Assembly (NCBI RefSeq): GCF_017348835.2
Contig: NZ_CP071375.1
Source of the DNA: Escherichia coli
Lineage (GTDB): Bacteria; Pseudomonadota; Gammaproteobacteria; Enterobacterales; Enterobacteriaceae
Reading direction: 5' to 3' (one strand)
DNA: 64,000 nt
How positions within the stretch are numbered: the first letter of the stretch is position 1; every line of letters starts with the position of its first letter. The position numbers and the translations under genes were made by a program. Of the stretch, positions 1,199 through 56,817 are shown piece after piece. Under the pieces are notes generated by a model. That model saw only the letters and a list, made by a program, of their open reading frames with translations. It was not told where the DNA came from and did not search any database.

Positions 1199-1311
1199 TT
1201 ATCATCATTCTTATTACCCATTTTTAATGAATTAAAGGGCTTTTAATACACCGCAGCAATAACAGGTTGAGTTATCTCAACACAAAGTAATAACCGTTAA
1301 GGGTGTAGCCT

Positions 1312-1407
1312 ATGATCAACACAAATATGAAATATTGGTCCTGGATGGGCGCGTTTTCTCTGTCGATGCTCTTCTGGGCCGAACTCCTCTGGATCATTAC
1401 TCACTGA
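1312..1407 (+). CDS. candidate small hydrophobic protein (31 aa, MINTNMKYWSWMGAFSLSMLFWAELLWIITH); possibly a ymi-family small protein
   Basis: ATG with AAGGG upstream; single predicted TM-like segment; followed 7 nt later by an intrinsic terminator; not in ORF track (below length cutoff). Confidence 0.4.
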   Translation: MINTNMKYWSWMGAFSLSMLFWAELLWIITH

Positions 1408-1413
1408 TCCCTG

Positions 1414-1434
1414 ACCCCGCTTCGGCGGGGTTTT
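1414..1434 (+). terminator. rho-independent terminator (ACCCCGC-TTCG-GCGGGGT + TTTT)
   Basis: GC-rich 7-bp stem, tetraloop, U-tract; sits between yciX/small ORF and acnA promoter. Confidence 0.55.
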
Positions 1435-1570
1435 CATTTGCTTTGCCACAAGCTTTCTCCTCTTTTATCAATTTGGGTTGTTATCAAATCGTTACGAGAT
1501 GTTTGTGTTATCTTTAATATTCACCCTGAAGAGAATCAGGGCTTCGCAACCCTGTCATTAAGGAGGAGCT

Positions 1571-27489: not shown

Positions 27490-28441
27490 ACCATTCCTTA
27501 TGTTTCAGAGGGTTAGCCATGGCACCCAAAATATCAGAAATCACGTTAACAATAATGACCAGTGAGCCACACACCATCACTCCGGCGGAAATGGCTGCGT
27601 AATCCTGCTGGCGGATGGCGTTAATTAACCAGCGCCCTAAACCCGGCCAGCTAAAAACCATTTCGGTGATCATCGCCAGCGTCAGCATGGTGGAAAACTG
27701 TAAGCCCAGGCGAGGAATAACCGGCGGTAACGCGTTATGCAGAACGTGGCGACGCAAAATAGTAAAGCGCGACAAACCACGGGTCGCCGCCGCTTTTACA
27801 TAGTTCTGGTCATACACTTCGATAGTGCTGATACGCATCAGGCGGATCACTTCAGTTGTTGGCGCAACCGACAGGGTGATCACGGGCAATATCATATGGC
27901 GGATTGCGCTCATGATCATTTCATCCCGCCATGGTGAGTCCGAAAGCCAGGCATCAATCAACGCAAAACCGGTAATCGGTTTCACTTCGTAGAGCAGATC
28001 GAAACGCCCTGAAACGGGCAACCAACCTAGCGTGAGTGAACAAAACAGCGTCAACAGAAGCGCCAGCCAGAACACCGGGATTGAAAAGCCCAGCAAGGCG
28101 ATGGCGTTGATCAAGTTATCCTGCCACTTATGGCGCGTAATCCCGGCAATCATCCCCACGGGGATGCCAACAATCAGCGCAAAACCGAAGGCGAGGATGC
28201 ACAGTTCCATCGTCGCCGGGAAGACCTCTTTTAACTGTTCGGCAATTGGTTGACCGTTAATGCTGGAAACACCAAAATCCCAGTGGATCAGGCCGTTAAA
28301 CCAGAACACCCAGGCATTCCACAGTGACGCGCCTTGTAACGGCGCGTGTGGAGTGAAATAGCTCAAGCTGAAGCCAACGAAGGTCAGCAGGAACAAGGTG
28401 ACAATCAATAACAAAATGCGGCGTAAGGTGAAGATAATCAT
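27476..28441 (-). CDS. sapB: peptide ABC transporter permease SapB (321 aa)
   Basis: ABC permease; 4-nt overlap with sapA stop. Confidence 0.95.
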
Positions 28442-30081
28442 GGTTTTTTCACCTCATCCTGTTTCTCGCGATACACCCCAGCAAAGGAGGCGTTACCAAA
28501 CGGGCTAAGTACCAGACCTTTGATATCGTACCGATAGGCCTGCAAACGCAATGACGACGCCAGCGGCAGAATAGGTAATTCCTGCGCCAGAATACTTTGC
28601 GCTTCGTCATAGGCTTCAATACGCGCCGCCAGCTGCTGCGAAGAGAGCGCCTTACGCAATACGCTGTCGAATTTCGGATCGCACCAGTGGGCGAGGTTGG
28701 TCTGCGAATGAATTGCCGCGCAGCTCAGTAACGGACGGAAGAAACTGTCCGGGTCGTTACTGTCCGTCGCCCAACCGGATAACGTCAGATCATGGCTCAT
28801 ATCCATCAACCGCGCCTCCTGGAAGCGACCTTCTACCGGCACAATCACCACTTTTACGCCAACCTGCGCCATATCCGCCTGAATCAGTTCGGCAGTTTTC
28901 AGTGGACTGGGGTTCCACGCCTGCGAACGTGTTGGCACCCACAGTTTCAGCGTTAAATTTTCCAGCCCCAACGACTTCAACTGTTCGCGCGATTTCGCCG
29001 GATTGTATTCAGTAATTTTAGCCTCGTTGTCATAGGCCCACGAGGCGCGCGGTAAAATAGAGGCCGCTGTTTCAGCCGTACCATAATAGATGGATTGCAT
29101 CAGGCGCTGGTTATTAATCGCCAGTGCCAGCGCATGGCGGACAGCGGGATTATTTAGCGGCGGTTTGGCGGTGTTAAATGCCAGATAGGCGACGTTCATC
29201 CCAGGACGCAGCGTTAAACGCAAGCGCGGGTCGTCACGCAAAATGGATAGCTGGCTGGCAGCAGGCCAGGCCAGAACGTCGCATTCCCCGGTCAGGAGTT
29301 TCGACAGACGTCCGGTGCCGCCGGAGCCTAAATCCACCACCACCTGCGGCATTAACGGTTTACCGCGCCAGAAGTCATCATGACGTTGTAGGCGAATAAA
29401 TTGCCCGGCGCGGTATTCCGACAACTGATATGGCCCAGTGCCGACCGGTTGACGGTCGAGTTGCTCCTGGCGATCTTCTTTCTCTAACTTCCGGGCATAT
29501 TCTGCCGACATGACCGAAGCATAATGGGTTGCGAGGTGCCACAAAAAAGAAGCATCCGGCTGAGCCAGACGGAACTCAACGGTATGATTATCCAGTTTAC
29601 GGACGCTTTTCACGTTATCGGCAAATTGCAGGCTGTCGAAGTAGGGGAAGTTGCTGCCGTTGACGTTATGCCACGGGTTGTTGCGGTCAAAAATTCGCTG
29701 GAAGGTAAACACCACATCGTCGGCATTCATTTTACGAGTGGGAGTAAACCAGTCGGTTTTTTGAAACGGAACATCGCGACGTAGGTGGAAGCGATAGGTC
29801 GCGCCGTTGTCGAGTACTTCCCAGCTTTCGGCAAGTTCTGGCATCAGGCGATAGGTATAGGGATCGACATCCAGCAGTCGATCATAAAACTGGGCGGCAA
29901 GGGTATCGACAATTAACCCACTGCTCGCTTTGGATGGGTTAAAGGTGTTGACTTGCCCGCTGACGCAATAGACAAAACCGCTGTCGCGGATATCAACATG
30001 CGGGGGGGATTCAGGCGCGGCGATTGCCTGACCACTCACAAGTCCAGCAATCACCAAAAGAGACGATAATACCTGGCGCAT
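28438..30081 (-). CDS. sapA: periplasmic peptide-binding protein SapA (547 aa)
   Basis: signal peptide; family 5 solute-binding protein; first gene of sapABCDF. Confidence 0.95.
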
Positions 30082-30329: not shown

Positions 30330-30358
30330 GCCGGATGCGGTGTGAACGCTTTATCCGG
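30330..30358. repeat. REP-like element (CCGGATGCGG...TTATCCGG)
   Basis: matches the enterobacterial REP palindrome pattern. Confidence 0.5.
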
Positions 30359-30393
30359 ACAACGATACTGACCGATCGTCTGCAATTAAATAA

Positions 30394-30639
30394 TTACTCA
30401 TTACCCCATTGATTCAAAAACTCTGCGATCTCATCAATGCGTACGGGATTAATCCCCGCTTCAGCAGCCATTTCATGTTGGGCTTCTTCGCTGATCTCTT
30501 CATTGTTCATCAAACGGGTGAGCAGTAACTGGAAGTAGTGGGCCAGAGGTGTGCGTTCAGCGTCTGCGACAGGCTCTGCGCATTCGGTCGCGTACTCATC
30601 GGCAATATCAAAATATTTTAGCGGGATATCGTGGTTCAT
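30394..30639 (-). CDS. ymjA: YmjA, DUF2543 protein (81 aa)
   Basis: ORF track; synteny between sapA and puuP. Confidence 0.85.
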
Positions 30640-30772: not shown

Positions 30773-32158
30773 TTACGTTTCGCTCACCGGTGTTCTGTCG
30801 CCATCATACAACGGCACTTTGCGATAGCGGCGGATCAGATACCATAAATATGCGCCGCCTAACGAAGCCCATACCAGACCGAGTGTCAGTGACGTTGACT
30901 CGAGGTTAACCCACAGCACACCAACCGTCAGCGCGCCAACCAGCGGCATCAGCAAATAGTGGAAGTGATCCTTCCAGCTTTTATTCATTCCTTTACGCCG
31001 CCAGAAATGATTAAACACCGACAGATTCACGAAGGTAAACGCCACCAGAGCACCGAAGTTAATTAACGCTGTGGCGGTAACTAAATCGAAGAACAGCGCC
31101 GACAACGCGACAATCCCGACCATAATGACGTTCAGTGCCGGAGTCCGCCATTTTGGGTGCACATAGCCAAACACGCGCTCCGGAAACACATTGTCACGCC
31201 CCATCACATACAGCAGACGCGACACGCTGGCATGTGAAGCCAGGCCAGACGCTAACGTGTTCACAAACGTGGTGCAGAGGAAAATCGACTGGAAGAGCTT
31301 GCCGCCGACGTACAGCGCAATTTCAGGCAGTGCGGCATCCGGATCTTTAAAGCGGCTGATATCGGGAAAGAACAGTTGCATAAAGAACGACGCAGCGATA
31401 AAGATAACGCCGCCGTATACCGCCGTCAGGAAGATGGCTTTCGGGATCACGCGTGCGGCGTCCGGCGTCTCTTCCGAAAGCGTGGTCACCGCATCGAAAC
31501 CAAGGAAAGAGAAACAGACAATTGTCGCCCCGGTTATAATCGGGATCAGGTGCGCGTTCTCGCTGATAAACGGCTGAAGTGACCAGACGGTGCCTACGCC
31601 TTCTCCTTTATGCAGTCCCTGAACCACCAGGAAGATAAACACCACCATGATGGAGATTTGCACCAGTACAAACAGGGTATTGAAGTTAGCAACCAGATTG
31701 ACGCTCTTCAGGTTCGCGGCGGTTAAAATGGCGACGAAGGTTACCACCCACACCCACGGCGGCACTTCCGGGAAGAGGGCGGAGAGATAGATTTTCGCCA
31801 ACAAGACGTTAATCATCGGCAAAAAGAGATAATCCAGCAGTGATGACCAGCCGACCATAAAGCCGACGTGCGGGTTAATCGACTTTTGCGCGTAGGTATA
31901 GGCCGAACCGGCCTCCGGAAACTGGCGAACCAGTTTGCCGTAGCTGATAGCGGTAAACAGCACACCCGCCAGCGCCAGCAAATAGGACGCCGGAACGTGA
32001 CCGTCGCTAATGCCTGACACAATGCCAAAAGTATCGAACACAGTCATCGGCGTGAGATAGGCCAGACCCATCATTACCACCTGCCACAATTTCAGTGATT
32101 TTCGCAGACGGGTTTTGCCGGGTTGCGCAGCAATATTCAGTGGTGAATTAATAGCCAT
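30773..32158 (-). CDS. puuP: putrescine importer PuuP, APC family (461 aa from MAINSPLN start; ORF track extends to 32212)
   Basis: 12-TM amino acid/polyamine permease; synteny with puu cluster. Confidence 0.92.
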
Positions 32159-32446
32159 AATTGCTGCCTCCCCTGCGTAATAAGGTTTGCGGTCGTGTCG
32201 ACCTGAAATCAAACCTGTTTAGCAAGGGAAGCAAAGGGGGCGGAGTCCAGTCAGTAGCAGGAGGGGCGCATACGCAACCTCCCTCGCCATGCGGGGATTT
32301 AATCATCGGCATCATCTCATTTCCTCGTCACAGTCTTAATCGTTAACGGAAGCCCGTTGCCGCCTGCGCTCCATAACGCGACATCCGGGAAATGTCTGGA
32401 TTACCAGCAAATGTCAGGCCTGGCTCCGCTCAGGCCGATGAAACAA

Positions 32447-32458
32447 CCCCGCAAGGGG
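32447..32458 (-). terminator. short GC hairpin (CCCC-GCAA-GGGG) immediately after puuA stop, T-rich on the transcribed strand
   Basis: 4-bp GC stem with tetraloop followed by TTGTTTCAT on the minus strand. Confidence 0.4.
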
Positions 32459-32460
32459 TA

Positions 32461-33879
32461 CTATGCGTTTTTCAACATCCACTCAATTTCTGTTTCTGTG
32501 ATGAGGCGCTCAAACTGCAACAGCTCATCATTTTTACAGGCGTGATAGACATGGCAAAACCGTTCGCCTAAATAGCGGCGCAGGTGATCATTCTCGATAA
32601 ACTCACCCAGGGCATCGCTCTGGCGAATCGGGAAGGGTAAGCCATCCTGTTCCAGCCCGTTGCCTTCGACTTCTTCCTGCAACGGCAGCTCGTTATCAAG
32701 ACCGTGCAAAATACCGGCAAAAATCGCTGCCATCACCAGATATGGGTTGGCATCGGCACCCGCCACGCGATATTCCACGCGGTGATTATGGCGATCGCCG
32801 CATGGAATACGCAGGGCGACGGTGCGGTTGTTATGGCCCCACGACGCCTGCGTCGGTACATACATCCCCGGCTGGAAGCGGCGATACGAGTTCACGTTTG
32901 GTGCCAGCAACGCCATTGATGACGGCATCAGATCGATCATTCCGGCGAGCATTTTTTTCAGCAGCGGCGAATCTTCGCCTTCCGCGTCAGAAAGCACGTT
33001 CTCGCCACGATTATTTTGCATACTGATATGGATATGCATCCCGCTGCCCGCGTGCTCTTCATACGGCTTCGCCATAAAAGTGGCGTGCATCTTATGCTTT
33101 TCTGCCATCAGACGCACCAGGCGTTTTAGTGCCAGCGCATCATCGCAGGCTTCCAGCACGTTATCGGTATGGTAAAGATTGATTTCAAACTGACCCGGCG
33201 AGGCCTCAGCGACCGCGCCATCTGCCGGAATCAGCTGTAACTGCGCCAGTTCATCAATATCATTGAGCACGTCGGCGAAGTGATTGAGGTTATCAACGGA
33301 GTAAACCTGGCTTTGTGTATTGCGGTCATCGGTGCCGGGCGCGCAGGGCGGTTGCAGATACCCTTCAGCGTCACGCTGGCGATCCAGTAAATAGAACTCC
33401 AGCTCTACCGCTACGACCGGAAACAATCCGCGCTGGCGCAGCTGCTGCCACAGGCGGTTAAGAACGTTCCGCGGCTCAACGTCAAAGGGAGCGCCATCTT
33501 CATCGACCATGGTCAGGAGCATCTGACCGATAAACTCTGGATCGGCGGCAGAAGGGGTTAAGGAACCGAGAACAGGAACACAGGTACGATCCGGCTCGCC
33601 CATTTCCTGACCCAGACCTGCTTCTTCTACTACGTTGCCCAGAATATCCATTGCAAACACCGAGGCCGGGAAATAACATCCTTTCTCGAGCTTCTTCAGG
33701 CTTGAAACAGGAATACGTTTTCCACGGAAGCAACCATTCAAATCGGTAAGTAAAACATCAACATATTGCGTATTCGGGTAGCGCTCCAGGTAGCGTTTCA
33801 CTTCCTGCGTAAAGGCGCTACCCCGCCTCTCTTCTGACTGCTGAACAAAGTTCTCTACTTCAACGATATTGGTTTCCAT
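32461..33879 (-). CDS. puuA: gamma-glutamylputrescine synthetase PuuA (472 aa from METNIVEV start; ORF track extends to 33957)
   Basis: glutamine synthetase-family sequence. Confidence 0.95.
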   Translation of the reverse strand: METNIVEVENFVQQSEERRGSAFTQEVKRYLERYPNTQYVDVLLTDLNGCFRGKRIPVSSLKKLEKGCYFPASVFAMDILGNVVEEAGLGQEMGEPDRTCVPVLGSLTPSAADPEFIGQMLLTMVDEDGAPFDVEPRNVLNRLWQQLRQRGLFPVVAVELEFYLLDRQRDAEGYLQPPCAPGTDDRNTQSQVYSVDNLNHFADVLNDIDELAQLQLIPADGAVAEASPGQFEINLYHTDNVLEACDDALALKRLVRLMAEKHKMHATFMAKPYEEHAGSGMHIHISMQNNRGENVLSDAEGEDSPLLKKMLAGMIDLMPSSMALLAPNVNSYRRFQPGMYVPTQASWGHNNRTVALRIPCGDRHNHRVEYRVAGADANPYLVMAAIFAGILHGLDNELPLQEEVEGNGLEQDGLPFPIRQSDALGEFIENDHLRRYLGERFCHVYHACKNDELLQFERLITETEIEWMLKNA

Positions 33880-33952
33880 GATTCTTCGCCTTTGGTTTGT
33901 TTTCCGCTCGTTATCAAAGCGTAAAATATAATGACCACCATTCGAATCTGTA

Positions 33953-33992
33953 TGCAAACTAAATGTTTGTCAAATGTTAAATTGAGTTTGCA
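33953..33992. promoter_or_regulatory. AT-rich divergent puuA/puuD control region with inverted repeat TGCAAACT...AGTTTGCA and AAATGTT direct repeats; candidate PuuR operator region
   Basis: 8-bp inverted repeat separated by 24 nt, centred in the 211-bp divergent intergenic region. Confidence 0.3.
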
Positions 33993-34090
33993 AAAATGAA
34001 AATCCACTGCTAGATTGAAAAAATATTGAACATAAAGGTCATTTAAACCGCAGTAATGGCGATAATTTAGTCCACTTAGTGAGATTGAGC

Positions 34091-34855
34091 ATGGAAAATA
34101 TAATGAACAATCCGGTTATCGGTGTCGTAATGTGCAGGAACAGGCTTAAGGGGCATGCGACCCAGACTCTGCAAGAAAAGTACCTGAATGCCATCATCCA
34201 TGCAGGCGGCTTGCCAATTGCGTTACCACATGCGCTGGCGGAACCGTCCTTACTTGAACAACTTTTGCCGAAACTCGATGGCATTTATCTTCCTGGTAGT
34301 CCCAGCAATGTGCAGCCGCACCTATATGGTGAAAACGGCGATGAGCCTGACGCCGATCCCGGGCGTGATCTTCTGAGCATGGCGTTAATTAATGCCGCAC
34401 TCGAAAGGCGCATCCCCATTTTCGCCATCTGCCGGGGGTTACAGGAACTGGTGGTGGCAACCGGTGGTTCGTTGCATCGCAAGCTGTGCGAACAGCCTGA
34501 ATTGCTGGAACATCGGGAAGATCCCGAACTGCCGGTGGAACAGCAATATGCGCCGTCGCACGAAGTTCAGGTTGAAGAGGGGGGATTACTGTCTGCATTG
34601 TTACCTGAATGTAGCAACTTTTGGGTAAACTCTCTGCATGGACAAGGGGCGAAGGTCGTTAGCCCGCAGTTGCGTGTTGAAGCTCGCTCGCCGGATGGCC
34701 TGGTTGAGGCGGTGAGCGTCATCAATCATCCTTTCGCGCTGGGCGTACAGTGGCACCCGGAATGGAACAGTAGCGAGTACGCGCTTTCGCGTATATTGTT
34801 CGAGGGCTTTATCACCGCTTGTCAGCACCATATCGCTGAAAAACAGCGACTCTGA
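34091..34855 (+). CDS. puuD: gamma-glutamyl-GABA hydrolase PuuD (254 aa from MENIMNN start)
   Basis: class I glutamine amidotransferase-like with catalytic Cys motif (AICRG). Confidence 0.93.
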   Translation: MENIMNNPVIGVVMCRNRLKGHATQTLQEKYLNAIIHAGGLPIALPHALAEPSLLEQLLPKLDGIYLPGSPSNVQPHLYGENGDEPDADPGRDLLSMALINAALERRIPIFAICRGLQELVVATGGSLHRKLCEQPELLEHREDPELPVEQQYAPSHEVQVEEGGLLSALLPECSNFWVNSLHGQGAKVVSPQLRVEARSPDGLVEAVSVINHPFALGVQWHPEWNSSEYALSRILFEGFITACQHHIAEKQRL

Positions 34856-34881
34856 CCACTACAGTTTAAGGAAATGCAAAT

Positions 34882-35439
34882 ATGAGTGATGAGGGACTGG
34901 CGCCAGGAAAACGCTTGTCGGAAATCCGCCAGCAGCAGGGGCTTTCACAACGTCGTGCCGCCGAACTCTCCGGGCTGACTCACAGTGCTATCAGTACGAT
35001 AGAACAGGATAAAGTCAGCCCTGCCATCAGTACGCTGCAAAAGCTGCTGAAGGTGTATGGTCTGTCACTCTCGGAATTCTTTTCCGAGCCGGAAAAACCT
35101 GATGAGCCGCAGGTCGTCATTAATCAGGACGATTTAATTGAGATGGGCAGTCAGGGTGTGTCAATGAAGCTGGTTCATAACGGTAACCCGAATCGCACGC
35201 TGGCGATGATCTTTGAAACGTACCAGCCTGGCACAACCACTGGGGAAAGAATTAAGCATCAGGGTGAGGAAATAGGCACTGTACTGGAAGGTGAAATTGT
35301 TCTGACGATTAATGGTCAGGATTACCACCTCGTCGCGGGGCAAAGTTATGCCATTAATACCGGCATCCCGCACAGTTTCAGTAATACGTCGGCAGGTATT
35401 TGCCGAATTATCAGCGCCCATACGCCCACCACGTTTTAA
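34882..35439 (+). CDS. puuR: HTH-type repressor PuuR (185 aa), XRE HTH plus cupin domain
   Basis: N-terminal HTH (LSQRRAAELSGLTHSAISTIEQ); C-terminal cupin. Confidence 0.93.
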   Translation: MSDEGLAPGKRLSEIRQQQGLSQRRAAELSGLTHSAISTIEQDKVSPAISTLQKLLKVYGLSLSEFFSEPEKPDEPQVVINQDDLIEMGSQGVSMKLVHNGNPNRTLAMIFETYQPGTTTGERIKHQGEEIGTVLEGEIVLTINGQDYHLVAGQSYAINTGIPHSFSNTSAGICRIISAHTPTTF

Positions 35440-35588
35440 TCTTTTTGTTCTGTAAGCCGGGTAAGCGCAATGCGCCCGGCAATCCATAAAGAATGTCGCC
35501 AGAAATAAACGGGCATACGGCCCGGGGATCTCTGCGCCCCGACGTTCACAAACTGCATATATCTGATAGACGTGAAACAGGAGTCATA

Positions 35589-37076
35589 ATGAATTTTCAT
35601 CATCTGGCTTACTGGCAGGATAAAGCGTTAAGTCTCGCCATTGAAACCCGCTTATTTATTAACGGTGAATATACTGCTGCGGCGGAAAATGAAACCTTTG
35701 AAACCGTTGATCCGGTCACCCAGGCACCGCTGGCGAAAATTGCCCGCGGCAAGAGCGTCGATATCGACCGTGCGGTGAGCGCAGCACGCGGCGTATTTGA
35801 ACGCGGCGACTGGTCACTCTCTTCTCCGGCTAAACGTAAAGCGGTACTGAATAAACTCGCCGATTTAATGGAAGCCAACGCCGAAGAGCTGGCACTGCTG
35901 GAAACTCTCGACACCGGCAAACCGATTCGTCACAGTCTGCGTGATGATATTCCCGGCGCGGCGCGCGCCATTCGCTGGTACGCCGAAGCGATCGACAAAG
36001 TGTATGGCGAAGTGGCGACCACCAGTAGCCATGAGCTGGCGATGATCGTGCGTGAACCGGTCGGCGTAATTGCCGCCATTGTACCGTGGAACTTCCCGCT
36101 GCTGCTGACCTGCTGGAAGCTTGGCCCGGCGCTGGCAGCAGGGAACAGCGTTGTCCTGAAACCGTCTGAAAAATCACCGCTCAGTGCGATTCGTCTCGCC
36201 GGGCTGGCTAAAGAGGCAGGCTTGCCGGATGGTGTGTTGAACGTGGTGACGGGTTTTGGTCATGAAGCGGGGCAGGCGCTGTCGCGTCATAACGATATCG
36301 ATGCCATCGCCTTTACCGGTTCAACCCGTACCGGGAAACAGCTGCTGAAAGATGCGGGCGACAGCAACATGAAACGCGTCTGGCTGGAAGCGGGCGGCAA
36401 AAGCGCCAACATCGTTTTCGCTGACTGCCCGGATTTGCAACAGGCGGCAAGCGCCACCGCAGCAGGCATCTTCTACAACCAGGGTCAGGTGTGCATCGCC
36501 GGAACGCGCCTGTTGCTGGAAGAGAGCATAGCTGATGAATTCTTAGCCCTGTTAAAACAGCAGGCGCAAAACTGGCAGCCGGGCCATCCACTTGATCCCG
36601 CAACCACCATGGGCACCTTAATCGACTGCGCCCACGCCGACTCGGTCCATAGCTTTATTCGGGAAGGCGAAAGCAAAGGGCAACTGTTGTTGGATGGCCG
36701 TAACGCCGGGCTGGCTGCCGCCATCGGCCCGACCATCTTTGTGGATGTAGACCCGAATGCGTCCTTAAGCCGCGAAGAGATTTTCGGTCCGGTGCTGGTT
36801 GTCACGCGTTTCACATCAGAAGAACAGGCGCTACAGCTTGCCAACGACAGCCAGTACGGCCTTGGCGCGGCGGTATGGACGCGCGACCTCTCCCGCGCGC
36901 ACCGCCTGAGCCGACGCCTGAAAGCCGGTTCCGTCTTCGTCAATAACTACAACGACGGCGATATGACCGTGCCGTTTGGCGGCTATAAGCAGAGCGGCAA
37001 CGGTCGCGACAAATCCCTGCATGCCCTTGAAAAATTCACCGAACTGAAAACCATCTGGATAAGCCTGGAGGCCTGA
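35589..37076 (+). CDS. puuC: gamma-glutamyl-gamma-aminobutyraldehyde dehydrogenase PuuC (495 aa from MNFHHLAY start; ORF track starts at 35493)
   Basis: aldehyde dehydrogenase family with catalytic Cys (GQVCIAG). Confidence 0.94.
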   Translation: MNFHHLAYWQDKALSLAIETRLFINGEYTAAAENETFETVDPVTQAPLAKIARGKSVDIDRAVSAARGVFERGDWSLSSPAKRKAVLNKLADLMEANAEELALLETLDTGKPIRHSLRDDIPGAARAIRWYAEAIDKVYGEVATTSSHELAMIVREPVGVIAAIVPWNFPLLLTCWKLGPALAAGNSVVLKPSEKSPLSAIRLAGLAKEAGLPDGVLNVVTGFGHEAGQALSRHNDIDAIAFTGSTRTGKQLLKDAGDSNMKRVWLEAGGKSANIVFADCPDLQQAASATAAGIFYNQGQVCIAGTRLLLEESIADEFLALLKQQAQNWQPGHPLDPATTMGTLIDCAHADSVHSFIREGESKGQLLLDGRNAGLAAAIGPTIFVDVDPNASLSREEIFGPVLVVTRFTSEEQALQLANDSQYGLGAAVWTRDLSRAHRLSRRLKAGSVFVNNYNDGDMTVPFGGYKQSGNGRDKSLHALEKFTELKTIWISLEA

Positions 37077-37077
37077 A

Positions 37078-38358
37078 ATGACCGAACATACCAGCAGTTA
37101 CTACGCCGCCAGTGCGAATAAATACGCGCCATTCGACACGCTGAATGAGTCAATTTCCTGCGACGTTTGCGTGGTTGGCGGCGGCTATACCGGGCTGTCT
37201 TCCGCGCTACATCTGGCGGAAGCGGGCTTTGACGTAGTGGTTCTCGAAGCCTCACGCATCGGCTTTGGCGCCAGCGGACGCAACGGCGGGCAGCTTGTAA
37301 ACTCCTACAGCCGCGACATCGACGTGATCGAAAAAAGCTACGGCATGGACACCGCCCGTATGCTCGGCAGCATGATGTTCGAGGGTGGCGAGATCATCCG
37401 CGAACGTATCAAACGCTATCAGATTGACTGCGACTACCGCCCCGGCGGCCTGTTTGTGGCGATGAATGATAAACAGCTCGCCACACTCGAAGAGCAGAAA
37501 GAGAACTGGGAACGCTACGGCAATAAACAGCTGGAGCTGCTGGACGCCAACGCCATTCGCCGCGAGGTCGCCAGCGATCGCTACACTGGTGCGCTGCTGG
37601 ATCACAGCGGCGGGCATATTCACCCGCTGAACCTCGCCATTGGTGAAGCCGATGCCATTCGTCTCAACGGCGGACGTGTGTATGAGCTTTCTGAGGTGAC
37701 GCAGATCCAGCACACCACGCCCGCCGTGGTGCGTACTACCAAAGGCCAGGTGACGGCGAAGTATGTGATTGTCGCCGGGAATGCGTACCTGGGCGATAAA
37801 GTGGAGCCGGAACTGGCGAAGCGTAGTATGCCGTGCGGCACGCAGGTGATCACCACTGAGCGGCTGTCAGAAGATTTAGCCCGTTCGCTGATCCCGAAAA
37901 ACTACTGTGTGGAAGACTGTAACTATCTGCTTGATTACTACCGTCTTACCGCCGACAACCGTTTGCTGTACGGCGGCGGCGTGGTGTACGGCGCCCGCGA
38001 CCCGGATGACGTTGAGCGTCTTGTGGTGCCGAAACTGCTGAAAACCTTCCCGCAGCTGAAGGGCGTGAAAATTGATTACCGCTGGACGGGCAACTTCCTG
38101 CTGACCCTGTCACGGATGCCGCAGTTCGGTCGCCTCGATACCAACATCTATTACATGCAGGGTTACAGCGGCCACGGCGTCACCTGTACCCACCTCGCCG
38201 GGCGTCTGATTGCCGAACTGCTGCGCGGCGACGCCGAACGTTTCGATGCCTTCGCCAATCTGCCGCATTACCCGTTCCCCGGCGGGCGCACGCTGCGCGT
38301 ACCGTTTACCGCGATGGGCGCGGCTTATTACAGCCTGCGCGATCGTCTGGGCGTTTAA
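37078..38358 (+). CDS. puuB: gamma-glutamylputrescine oxidase PuuB (426 aa), FAD-dependent
   Basis: FAD-binding N-terminus VCVVGGGYTGLSSA. Confidence 0.94.
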   Translation: MTEHTSSYYAASANKYAPFDTLNESISCDVCVVGGGYTGLSSALHLAEAGFDVVVLEASRIGFGASGRNGGQLVNSYSRDIDVIEKSYGMDTARMLGSMMFEGGEIIRERIKRYQIDCDYRPGGLFVAMNDKQLATLEEQKENWERYGNKQLELLDANAIRREVASDRYTGALLDHSGGHIHPLNLAIGEADAIRLNGGRVYELSEVTQIQHTTPAVVRTTKGQVTAKYVIVAGNAYLGDKVEPELAKRSMPCGTQVITTERLSEDLARSLIPKNYCVEDCNYLLDYYRLTADNRLLYGGGVVYGARDPDDVERLVVPKLLKTFPQLKGVKIDYRWTGNFLLTLSRMPQFGRLDTNIYYMQGYSGHGVTCTHLAGRLIAELLRGDAERFDAFANLPHYPFPGGRTLRVPFTAMGAAYYSLRDRLGV

Positions 38359-38395
38359 TTTCCGATTAACAGTGAAGAGTCAAAAGGTGTGAAAC

Positions 38396-39661
38396 ATGAG
38401 CAACAATGAATTCCATCAGCGTCGTCTTTCTGCCACCCCGCGCGGGGTTGGCGTGATGTGTAACTTCTTCGCCCAGTCGGCTGAAAACGCCACGCTGAAG
38501 GATGTTGAGGGCAACGAGTACATCGATTTCGCCGCAGGCATTGCGGTGCTGAATACCGGACATCGCCACCCTGATCTGGTCGCGGCGGTAGAGCAGCAAC
38601 TGCAACAGTTTACCCACACCGCGTACCAGATTGTGCCGTATGAAAGCTACGTCACCCTGGCGGAGAAAATCAACGCCCTTGCCCCGGTGAGCGGGCAGGC
38701 TAAAACTGCGTTCTTCACCACCGGCGCGGAAGCGGTGGAAAACGCGGTGAAAATCGCCCGCGCCCATACCGGACGCCCTGGTGTGATTGCGTTTAGCGGC
38801 GGCTTCCACGGTCGTACGTATATGACTATGGCGTTAACTGGAAAGGTCGCGCCGTACAAAATCGGCTTCGGCCCGTTCCCTGGTTCGGTGTATCACGTAC
38901 CTTATCCGTCAGATTTACACGGCATTTCAACACAGGACTCCCTCGACGCCATCGAACGCTTGTTTAAATCAGACATCGAAGCGAAGCAGGTCGCGGCGAT
39001 TATTTTCGAACCGGTGCAGGGCGAGGGCGGTTTCAACGTTGCACCCAAAGAGCTGGTTGCCGCCATTCGCCGCCTGTGCGACGAGCACGGTATTGTGATG
39101 ATTGCTGATGAAGTGCAAAGCGGCTTTGCGCGTACCGGTAAGCTGTTTGCCATGGATCATTACGCCGATAAGCCGGATTTAATGACGATGGCGAAAAGCC
39201 TCGCGGGCGGGATGCCGCTTTCGGGCGTGGTCGGTAACGCGAATATTATGGACGCACCTGCGCCGGGCGGGCTTGGCGGCACCTACGCCGGTAACCCGCT
39301 GGCGGTGGCTGCCGCGCACGCGGTGCTCAACATTATCGACAAAGAATCACTCTGCGAACGCGCGAATCAACTGGGCCAGCGTCTGACAAACACGCTGATT
39401 GATGCCAAAGAAAGCGTTCCGGCCATCGCGGCGGTACGCGGTCTGGGGTCTATGATTGCGGCAGAGTTTAACGATCCGCAAACGGGCGAGCCGTCAGCGG
39501 CGATTGCACAGAAAATCCAGCAACGCGCGCTGGCGCAGGGACTGCTTCTACTGACCTGTGGCGCATACGGCAACGTGATTCGTTTCCTGTATCCGCTGAC
39601 CATCCCGGATGCGCAATTCGATGCGGCAATGAAAATTTTGCAGGATGCGCTGAGAGATTAA
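38396..39661 (+). CDS. puuE: 4-aminobutyrate aminotransferase PuuE (421 aa), PLP-dependent class III
   Basis: class III aminotransferase sequence; puu cluster synteny. Confidence 0.94.
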   Translation: MSNNEFHQRRLSATPRGVGVMCNFFAQSAENATLKDVEGNEYIDFAAGIAVLNTGHRHPDLVAAVEQQLQQFTHTAYQIVPYESYVTLAEKINALAPVSGQAKTAFFTTGAEAVENAVKIARAHTGRPGVIAFSGGFHGRTYMTMALTGKVAPYKIGFGPFPGSVYHVPYPSDLHGISTQDSLDAIERLFKSDIEAKQVAAIIFEPVQGEGGFNVAPKELVAAIRRLCDEHGIVMIADEVQSGFARTGKLFAMDHYADKPDLMTMAKSLAGGMPLSGVVGNANIMDAPAPGGLGGTYAGNPLAVAAAHAVLNIIDKESLCERANQLGQRLTNTLIDAKESVPAIAAVRGLGSMIAAEFNDPQTGEPSAAIAQKIQQRALAQGLLLLTCGAYGNVIRFLYPLTIPDAQFDAAMKILQDALRD

Positions 39662-39688
39662 TACGCAGAAGCAGGGGCAACGCAATAA

Positions 39689-39770
39689 TGCCTGATACGC
39701 TGCGCTTATCAGACCTGCAAACGACGTATTGATTATGTATGCCGGATAAGGCGTTCACGCCGCATCCGGC
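39689..39770. repeat. pair of REP elements (BIME-like) between puuE and pspF (GCCTGATACGCTGCGCTTATCAG... and GCCGGATAAGGCGTTCACGCCGCATCCGGC)
   Basis: both match the canonical enterobacterial REP palindrome types. Confidence 0.75.
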
Positions 39771-39791
39771 AAGTTGTATTGCCCAACTTCG

Positions 39792-40769
39792 CTAAATCTG
39801 GTGCTTTTTCAACAACGCGCGGAACTGATGATAGGTTAACCCCAGTAATTCAGCCGCGCGCTTCTGGTTATATTTCCCTTGTTGCAAACTGAGTTGCAGC
39901 AACTCTTTTTCCTGCTGCATCTGAAACTCACGTAAATCCAGCGGCAGCGTCGGAAGCGAGGTGGTTTCTGAAACGGCGATGGCTTCTTCAGGTGGACGCC
40001 GTTTAAAGGGATCAATAATGATGTCATCAAGCGGATAATCGCTGGTGCCGTGGCGATACACTGAACGTTCCACCACGTTTTTCAATTCACGAATATTTCC
40101 CGGCCAGCGATAATTCAGCAATGTTTCTCTGGCGTGTTCGGTAAAACCCGGGAACAGAGGCAGCTTGATTTCCCGACACATCTGGATGGCAAAGTGTTCT
40201 GCCATTAACATAATGTCGCTTTCGCGTTCGCGTAGTGGCGGCAGTTGTACAACATCAAAAGCCAGCCGGTCGAGAAGGTCAGCGCGAAAAGTACCTTCAT
40301 TGACCATCGCCGGGAGATCGGCATTCGTCGCGCATACCAACCGCACATTCACCTGCAACGGCTGGCTGCCGCCAACGCGCTCCAGTTCACCGTACTCAAT
40401 CACGCGCAATAATTTTTCCTGCACCATCATCGGTGCTGTAGCGAGTTCATCAAGAAATAGCGTACCGCCGTCGGCACGTTCAAATCTCCCTGGATGACGT
40501 TTTTGCGCACCGGTAAACGCCCCCGCTTCGTGACCAAACAGTTCGGAATCCAGCAGATTTTCATTTAACGCCGCGCAGTTAAGGGAAATAAACGGCCCTT
40601 GCCAACGGGAGGAGAGATAATGCAGGCGGCTGGCGATCAGCTCTTTACCGGTGCCGCGTTCGCCGATGATGAGCACCGGTTTGTCCAGCGGTGCGAGATG
40701 CGAAACCTGTTCCAGCACTTCGAGAAAGCTGTTCGCCTCACCAAGTAAATTATCTTTGTATTCTGCCAT
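39792..40769 (-). CDS. pspF: sigma54-dependent psp operon activator PspF (325 aa from MAEYKD start)
   Basis: AAA+ sigma54-activator domain (GERGTGKE; GAFTGA motif); C-terminal HTH. Confidence 0.95.
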   Translation of the reverse strand: MAEYKDNLLGEANSFLEVLEQVSHLAPLDKPVLIIGERGTGKELIASRLHYLSSRWQGPFISLNCAALNENLLDSELFGHEAGAFTGAQKRHPGRFERADGGTLFLDELATAPMMVQEKLLRVIEYGELERVGGSQPLQVNVRLVCATNADLPAMVNEGTFRADLLDRLAFDVVQLPPLRERESDIMLMAEHFAIQMCREIKLPLFPGFTEHARETLLNYRWPGNIRELKNVVERSVYRHGTSDYPLDDIIIDPFKRRPPEEAIAVSETTSLPTLPLDLREFQMQQEKELLQLSLQQGKYNQKRAAELLGLTYHQFRALLKKHQI

Positions 40770-40863
40770 GATGAAATTCGCCACTTGTTAGTGTAATTCG
40801 CTAATTCATCCTGGCATGTTGCTGTTGATTCTTCAATCAGATCTTTATAAATCAAAAAGATAA

Positions 40864-54802: not shown

Positions 54803-55708
54803 ATGAAAAAGTTATTACCCTGTACCGCACTGGTGATGTGTGCGGGAATGGCCTGCGCACAGGCCGAGGAAAAGAACGACTGGCACTTTAATATCGGCGC
54901 GATGTACGAAATAGAAAACGTCGAGGGTTATGGCGAAGATATGGATGGGCTGGCGGAGCCTTCTGTCTATTTTAATGCCGCCAACGGGCCGTGGAGAATT
55001 TCTCTGGCCTATTATCAGGAAGGGCCGGTAGATTATAGCGCGGGTAAACGTGGAACGTGGTTTGATCGCCCGGAGCTGGAGGTGCATTATCAGTTCCTCG
55101 AAAGCGATGATTTCAGTTTCGGCCTGACCGGCGGTTTCCGTAATTATGGTTATCACTACGTTGATGAACCGGGTAAAGACACGGCGAATATGCAGCGCTG
55201 GAAAATCGCGCCAGACTGGGATGTGAAACTGACTGACGATTTACGTTTCAACGGTTGGTTGTCGATGTATAAATTTGCCAACGATTTGAACACGACCGGT
55301 TACGCTGATACCCGTGTCGAAACGGAAACAGGTCTGCAATATACCTTCAACGAAACGGTTGCTTTGCGAGTGAACTATTATCTCGAGCGCGGCTTCAATA
55401 TGGACGACAGCCGCAATAACGGTGAGTTTTCCACGCAAGAAATTCGCGCCTATTTGCCGCTGACGCTCGGCAACCACTCAGTGACGCCATATACGCGCAT
55501 TGGGTTGGATCGCTGGAGTAACTGGGACTGGCAGGATGATATAGAACGTGAAGGCCATGATTTTAACCGTGTGGGTTTATTTTACGGTTATGATTTCCAG
55601 AATGGTCTTTCCGTTTCGCTGGAATACGCGTTTGAGTGGCAGGATCACGACGAAGGCGACAGCGATAAATTCCATTATGCAGGTGTCGGCGTAAATTACT
55701 CGTTCTGA
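54803..55708 (+). CDS. ompG: outer-membrane porin OmpG (301 aa)
   Basis: signal peptide; beta-barrel with C-terminal YSF. Confidence 0.93.
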   Translation: MKKLLPCTALVMCAGMACAQAEEKNDWHFNIGAMYEIENVEGYGEDMDGLAEPSVYFNAANGPWRISLAYYQEGPVDYSAGKRGTWFDRPELEVHYQFLESDDFSFGLTGGFRNYGYHYVDEPGKDTANMQRWKIAPDWDVKLTDDLRFNGWLSMYKFANDLNTTGYADTRVETETGLQYTFNETVALRVNYYLERGFNMDDSRNNGEFSTQEIRAYLPLTLGNHSVTPYTRIGLDRWSNWDWQDDIEREGHDFNRVGLFYGYDFQNGLSVSLEYAFEWQDHDEGDSDKFHYAGVGVNYSF

Positions 55709-55722
55709 TAATGGGCTAAATT

Positions 55723-55796
55723 GCCGGATGCGGCGCGAGTACTTTATCCGATCTATAAATGTAGGCCGGATAAGATGCGCTAGCATCGCATCCGGC
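55723..55796. repeat. two REP-like palindromes (BIME-like) between convergent ompG and ycjW
   Basis: GCCGGATGCGGCGCGAGTACTTTATCCG and GGCCGGATAAGATGCGC...GCATCCGGC. Confidence 0.7.
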
Positions 55797-55818
55797 ATTC
55801 AGGCAAGGTAGCTGGTAT

Positions 55819-56817
55819 TTATTTCAGCGTCATATGCGTGGCAACGGTAATATTCTGTGGTGACGGTTTTCCAGAAATTAAGCGGAATAATAACTCGCAG
55901 CTTTGTTGACCTAACTCCTGCGTCGGAACATCGATGCCGCCCGGTGCAGGCGTTAAAATAAATGACAGCGTTTCATTGCTATAACCCACCACCGCTAACT
56001 GCTGCGGAATAGCAATATTTTTCTCTGCTGCCGCACGATAAATGCTCATTAATTTCAGGCTGTCAGTGGCAAACACCGCCTCAGGCAACGGTGACTGGCT
56101 TAATAATTCTCTCGCGGCTTGCAGTGCTGTTTCATGGGTATAACCGCCGTCAACAATCCATTCATCACGCACTGCAATATTATGCGCGGACAGACTTTGC
56201 TTATAACCATTTACCCGATCCACTGAAACATGGACATCAAGCGGTGCATGAAGGCAGGCAATGTTTTTATGTCCATTCTCAATTAATGCATCGGTTAGCG
56301 CAATGCTGTCACCAAAATTATCGGTATCGACAGAATAAACATGGGCATATTGACCTTCAACTTTGCCAATCACCACGACAGGAATATCGTATTTATCAAG
56401 TTGGGCAAAAAATGACTCATCCGCTGGCGAACTTAGCATAATAATGCCTTTAATCATTTTCTGCTTAATTGTGCTTTCACATTTTTGTAAGTCTTCTGCC
56501 AGGTTGTGCGACGTTTGTAATATCACGTCGAAACCTTCTTCTTCCGCTTTGGCGGTGATGGCATGTAGAACTTCTGAGAAAAACGGATTACCCGCCGTAG
56601 TTTTGGTCGAACGGGTAGAAATCACCATAATGGCATCAAAACCCGAAGAGGTCAGCGCGCGGGCCAGCTTGTTTGGCTGATACTGTAATTCTTCAATGGC
56701 CCGTAACACTTTTTCGCGCGCTTCCGGGGAGATATTGGTTTGCTTATTCAGCACGCGTGATACGGTGGATTTTGATACGCCTGCAACCCTGGCAATATCA
56801 TAAATAGTAGGGGACAT
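55819..56817 (-). CDS. ycjW: LacI-family transcriptional regulator YcjW (332 aa)
   Basis: N-terminal LacI HTH ([20 protein letters not shown]). Confidence 0.92.

Follow-up and report, generated by a model that had tools for sequence, protein, structure and literature searches.

The stretch of DNA analysed here (hereafter the window) comprises 64,000 nt of the Escherichia coli chromosome that are collinear with approximately 1327-1391 kb of K-12 MG1655, and strain PE164 was 100% identical to all three window segments that were queried. Five REP units are found in the intergenic gaps puuE/pspF, ompG/ycjW and ymjA/sapA, all of them extragenic and located at gene 3' ends (Table 1). The gene names of the flanks agree with the RefSeq annotation, and the K-12 RefSeq annotation carries no repeat_region features at these regions, so that there are no curated REP names for the units. 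An earlier note on this DNA had described REP palindromes at these three places as lying at convergent gene ends. The description holds for puuE and pspF, which converge across a 130-bp gap, and for ompG and ycjW, which converge across 110 bp, but not for ymjA and sapA, which form a co-directional pair according to both the ORFs and the annotation; since both of these genes are on the minus strand, the REP unit between them follows the end of ymjA and precedes the start of sapA by 248 nt.

Table 1. Positions, in window numbering, of the REP units, their linkers and the genes that flank them
Feature	Position	Strand	Pattern-scan hit	Foot tetranucleotide	Distance past stop codon	Remarks
sapA	28438-30081	-				start at 30081
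Unit A, solitary Y-type REP	30330-30363	+	30330-30357 +	GTTG	ymjA, 30 nt	30/34 to Y consensus, E=3.5e-7
ymjA	30394-30639	-				stop codon 30394-30396
puuE	38396-39661	+				stop codon 39659-39661
Unit B, short Z-type (z1) REP	39689-39718 (39690-39718 aligned)	+	39690-39712 +	CTGC, not CTAC (GCAG on opposite strand)	puuE, 27 nt	head-to-tail on the + strand, TGCCTGATACGCTGCGCTTATCAGACCTGC
Tail-to-tail linker, shortened L-type	39719-39736					18 nt, AAACGACGTATTGATTAT
IHF-like core in linker	39722-39734	-				AATCAATACGTCG, 8/9 specified positions of WATCAANNNNTTR, one mismatch
Unit C, near-consensus Y-type REP	39737-39771 (39737-39770 aligned)	-	39743-39770 -	GTAT, not GTAG	pspF, 20 nt	TGCCGGATGCGGCGTGAACGCCTTATCCGGCATAC
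pspF	39792-40769	-				stop codon 39792-39794
ompG	54803-55708	+				stop codon 55706-55708
Unit D, degenerate Y-type REP	55722-55756 (55723-55756 aligned)	+	55723-55750 +	CTAT (ATAG on opposite strand)	ompG, 13-14 nt	head exact
Tail-to-tail linker	55757-55760					4 nt, AAAT
Unit E, 36-nt REP of long-Z (z2) length	55761-55797 (55761-55796 aligned)	-	55767-55796 -	GTAG, intact (55761-55764)	ycjW, 21 nt	
ycjW	55819-56817	-				stop codon 55819-55821

Mechanical ORF calling also yields minus-strand frames at 39468-39758 (96 aa) and 55577-55798 (73 aa), which cross the REP/BIME elements into the 3' ends of puuE and ompG; these are almost certainly not genes, and should not be called as such.

Identification of the REP units

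The family consensus is an imperfect palindrome of 29-36 nt of the form GCC(G/T)GATGCG...CTTATC(C/A)GGCCTAC, and the consensus sequences used were obtained from the methods of PMC11208160 and from PMC12306157. The whole window was scanned on both strands for GCCKGATGCG (at most one mismatch), a gap of 4-16 nt and CTTATCMG (at most one mismatch). Five units were recovered, against a mean of 0.055 and a maximum of 1 in 200 dinucleotide-preserving shuffles of the window. When the three literature consensus sequences were aligned to the window by blastn-short, E values below 0.01 were obtained at the same three places only, and the list given in the earlier note is therefore complete for the window. 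Its boundaries are right to within 1 nt, inclusion of the flanking T/A giving 39689-39771 for the first element. On formal alignment all five units match the consensus, with identity at 26-33 of 29-36 positions; the term 'canonical', which had been applied to all of them, is apt for units C and A but not for the diverged units B, D and E. Further exact or near-exact matches to the REP head (e.g. at 27834 and 58865) were rejected as REP units because the tail half is missing; by K-12 coordinates they fall within coding sequences.

When the 88-nt puuE/pspF element was used as a query, its REP arms gave matches at 40 places or more in each of 5425 E. coli genomes out of 5426, and megablast of the element with its flanks gave a median of 26 places per genome. 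This multiplicity, together with the 100% identity to E. coli chromosome, bears out the earlier view that such elements are ordinary for this genome and mark an E. coli-type background. The three loci were not found in the supplements of the RepRanger, REPtron and gyrase Topo-seq papers.

Palindromes at the 3' ends of genes that form GC-rich hairpins could instead be gene-specific intrinsic (Rho-independent) terminators that resemble REPs by chance. However, none of these hairpins is followed by a T-run, and a terminator scan found no hairpin with a succeeding T-run within any of the three gaps, its three terminator-like hits lying inside the coding sequences of puuE and pspF. The extent of the consensus match, the rarity of such units in the shuffled window and their recurrence throughout the genome are likewise at odds with a chance resemblance, and we consider an origin as terminators to be effectively refuted and scarcely credible. 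We are highly confident that all three sites belong to the E. coli REP family, namely as a BIME of the BIME-1 kind, an atypical doublet and a solitary Y-type unit, and that they most likely act in the ways known for the family. As such they are ordinary and already known elements, and nothing about them is new.

The puuE/pspF element

The two units of the puuE/pspF element, a Y (unit C) and a z1 (unit B), are present as a single copy in inverse, tail-to-tail orientation. Unit C matches the Y consensus at 33 of 34 positions (blastn-short E=3.8e-13) and is predicted to form a hairpin of -22 to -23 kcal/mol (z -5.0 to -5.7). The corresponding values for unit B are 25/29 against GCCTGATGCGCTACGCTTATCAGGCCTAC when counted over the full length, or 24/27 in local alignment, with a hairpin of -8 to -11 kcal/mol (z -2.4 to -2.8). 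The entire gap also folds, with energies of -49.8 and -51.4 kcal/mol (z -4.0 and -3.4) for the two strands.

BIME-1 elements have been defined as a y unit and a z1 unit joined by a long linker, L, and BIME-2 elements as y and z2 units joined by a short linker (PMC3333891). The katE-chbG copy has the order Y, 35-nt L, short Z and, taken with this definition, it identifies the short Z as z1 and the long Z as z2. The puuE/pspF element aligns with the katE-chbG BIME-1 from end to end, interrupted by gaps of 10 and 7 nt that both fall inside L, so that 17 nt are missing. A 62-nt probe centred on the canonical BIME-1 linker L had a median of 36 matching places per genome in E. coli, with up to 98% identity, whereas a 45-nt probe centred on the puuE/pspF linker gave one match per genome, at the same site, in 5420 of the 5426 genomes. 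The element thus resembles the katE-chbG BIME-1 in its unit types, tail-to-tail order, single copy, location at convergent 3' ends and end-to-end alignment, and also in its IHF-like core, whose position and orientation relative to Y are identical in the two. It differs from BIME-1 (RIB/RIP) elements in that its linker measures 18 nt rather than the well-conserved length of about 35 nt and occurs at one place per genome, and in having GTAT and GCAG feet. Given the end-to-end alignment and the single-copy linker, 39689-39771 is, as judged from its sequence, a single BIME of the BIME-1 (RIB/RIP) kind with a shortened, locus-specific L-type linker.

Because the linker is single-copy and only about half as long as canonical L, IHF binding should not be assumed from membership of BIME-1. 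Among the three sites the IHF-like core occurs only in the puuE/pspF linker, and the match is not significant by itself, since the window contains 69 matches of this quality where 54 are expected, or about one per kb. Two IHF-core matches, each with one mismatch, are also present at 40835-40862 (+) in the divergent promoter gap between pspF and pspA, where IHF is known to act at the psp promoter.

The puuE/pspF locus is that of the 'RIB element' published for the goaG-pspF intergenic region of K-12, goaG being puuE. In 1997, Jovanovic and Model reportedly described this RIB element in E. coli K-12, with IHF binding and effects on pspF transcripts. The locus being the same, the window element has its orthologue in the K-12 sequence; relative to K-12, the window allele has 11 additional nt (39663-39673) after the puuE stop codon and seven substitutions in and around the REPs, and its Y unit is nearer to the consensus.

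Two features of the flanks were also observed. An imperfect inverted repeat, 39668-39685 / 39774-39790 (GAAGCAGGGGCAACGCAA / TTGTATTGCCCAACTTC), brackets the whole BIME, and its pairing closes a predicted three-way RNA fold (z -4.0). Part of the repeat is missing from the K-12 allele. Furthermore, the Z-side flank CAACGCAATAA may be a BIME-1 flanking motif, as it resembles the flank CAAACGCAAAAC of the katE-chbG BIME-1.

The ompG/ycjW doublet and the solitary REP at ymjA/sapA

Unit D gave 26 matches to the 34-nt Y consensus over 33 aligned nt. Unit E matches the long Z at 31 of 36 positions and the 34-nt Y at 29 positions over a gapped alignment of 36 columns, and has G/C at the Y-diagnostic positions, i.e. 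those that separate Y from Z. The two units are predicted to pair with each other as one long hairpin, with z values of -4.8 and -5.6 for the two strands. With BIME-2 (Y and z2 joined by a short S linker) the element shares a long unit of 36 nt, a Y-like partner and a very short tail-to-tail linker. In contrast to BIME-2 elements, which are usually tandem and are preferred gyrase sites, the ompG/ycjW element is a single doublet without tandem repeats, its long unit has G/C and not T/A, and both units are either hybrid or degenerate. The label that suits it best is an atypical, BIME-2-like BIME. The pairing of inverted REPs into one long hairpin is also reminiscent of the REPINs of Pseudomonas and other bacteria, but unlike REPINs the copies here are fixed, decayed and without sign of recent mobility.

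The ompG/ycjW region varies between strains. In strain FAH and similar genomes it has a single REP-like palindrome, unit E being absent in FAH, and a gap that is 60 nt shorter (relative to 55757-55818 of the window), and about 400 genomes gave no match at all to the region. The polymorphism in FAH fits the known variability of BIMEs between strains (PMC3333891).

The single unit at ymjA/sapA, unit A, is predicted to fold with a z value of -2.2 to -3.1.

Allelic variation, age and mobility

In every E. coli phylogroup sampled, the puuE/pspF element occupies one and the same site, and E. whittamii and Escherichia sp. E1V33 carry it there too. Its presence in the last two, and as a single copy at one site in nearly all of the E. 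coli genomes, indicates that it is old and fixed. The alleles differ by scattered substitutions, some of which break stems, as in the Y unit of K-12, and by an 11-nt indel, CGCAGAAGCAG (39663-39673), after the puuE stop codon. This is present in the window, O157, UTI89 and Tig207 and absent from K-12, S1 and 120899, and it shifts the distance from the puuE stop codon to the REP from 16 nt in the K-12 allele to 27 nt in the window allele. A more decayed copy was noted in strain E69 (positions 1953-2010 of the retrieved segment), with 10 nt deleted from within the Y REP and additional changes. B2 strains such as UTI89 and ATCC 25922 have kept the element despite loss of puuP-puuE.

That loss was seen as an 8.7-kb stretch, 30877-39598, comprising most of puuP through puuE, that is missing from B2-type genomes (UTI89, ATCC 25922 and M24 among them; approximately 1150 of 5426). 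Position 30876 is joined to 39599 across a 4-nt microhomology, ACCA. What remains is a 108-nt fragment of puuP and the final 63 nt of puuE; the BIME and pspF are untouched.

The GTAG tetranucleotide is needed for binding and cleavage by TnpA(REP) (PMC3333891), and it is intact in only one of the five units (Table 1); Tig207 and E. whittamii keep GTAG/CTAC at puuE/pspF. The lack of GTAG in the other four units reflects decay of the copies and does not argue against their membership of the REP family. In view of the requirement of TnpA(REP) for this tetranucleotide, these four units are most likely immobile relics fixed at their loci.

An alternative reading of the puuE/pspF element is that of an active mobile REP doublet, REPIN-like and mobilized by TnpA(REP), that arrived recently. 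The two inverted REPs do make a doublet, TnpA(REP) acts on REP/BIME sequences in vitro (PMC3333891), and BIME content is polymorphic at the nearby ompG/ycjW site. Nevertheless, a recent arrival is difficult to reconcile with a locus-specific, single-copy linker found at the same site in all but six of the E. coli genomes, with the presence of the element at that position also in E. whittamii and Escherichia sp. E1V33, and with two window units that both lack GTAG/CTAC. Recent mobility is for these reasons very improbable, and we retain the classification as an old BIME-1 with a shortened linker.

Possible functions of the elements

As the three gaps contain no intrinsic terminator, no strong 3' hairpin other than the REPs is present in them, and this fits the role of the family as exonuclease barriers or attenuators and not as intrinsic terminators. 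The functions ascribed to REPs include the binding of IHF and gyrase (PMC3184786); gyrase cleavage is enriched in BIME-2, where it affects y-type REPs more frequently than z2 (PMC6379681). From the family as a whole we infer the roles of mRNA 3'-end barrier, IHF site and gyrase site for the loci described here. The elements would become part of the 3' untranslated region in transcripts of the adjacent gene or genes, where the GC-rich hairpins would block 3'-to-5' exonucleases and so set and stabilize processed mRNA 3' ends, and REP hairpins may also attenuate read-through into the convergent gene. At the DNA level, the puuE/pspF linker may be bent by IHF and the Y-type units may bind gyrase. 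REPs located at most 15 nt after a stop codon are reported, in work cited in PMC12306157, to stall terminating ribosomes. Among the five genes with a REP beyond their stop codon, ompG is the only one for which the distance falls within this limit, and its REP might act in this manner.

The puuE/pspF element could in addition have a locus-specific regulatory role that goes beyond the generic effects of REPs, for example as an IHF-dependent bidirectional barrier that tunes pspF, which encodes a stress regulator, and puuE, with the inverted repeat of the long allele giving a three-way RNA junction. Several observations are consistent with such a role: the IHF-like core is kept in the right orientation relative to canonical L, the whole gap folds as a closed multi-stem structure (z -4.0), the element is retained in B2 strains in which puuP-puuE is deleted to 63 nt before the puuE stop codon, and the 1997 study is said to have found IHF binding and effects on pspF transcripts. 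On the other hand, the linker does not clearly exceed the arms in conservation (0.071 differences per site, versus about 0.09 in the arms), K-12 has lost part of the enclosing stem through the 11-nt indel and substitutions, covariation among nine puuE/pspF orthologues is not above the shuffle control (91% of cells pair), and the IHF match is, as noted above, not significant by itself. We regard a locus-specific role as unlikely.

A more explicit proposal is that the shortened-L BIME-1 has been domesticated as a locus-specific element in which IHF and the paired hairpins would set the 3' ends of both mRNAs and tune PspF. The grounds for it are that the element was fixed before the split of E. 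coli and E. whittamii and is kept where the puu genes have been deleted. We put it forward as speculation that is probably wrong; were it true, the alleles of the 11-nt indel, with their different spacing between puuE stop codon and REP, would differ in function.

For the REP family members as we read them here, the import beyond annotation is small. The E. coli origin of the window is confirmed, and three intergenic gaps are marked whose strong 3' hairpins are all REPs. As a natural example of a decayed BIME-1 with an L of half length, the puuE/pspF copy could serve for asking which part of L is needed by IHF.

Rfam has no family for REPs, and its sole match in the window, at 1239-1441 (+), is to STnc180, an sRNA of enterobacteria, with 200 bits where the gathering score is 50; it is located antisense to the btuR/yciK region by K-12 coordinates.
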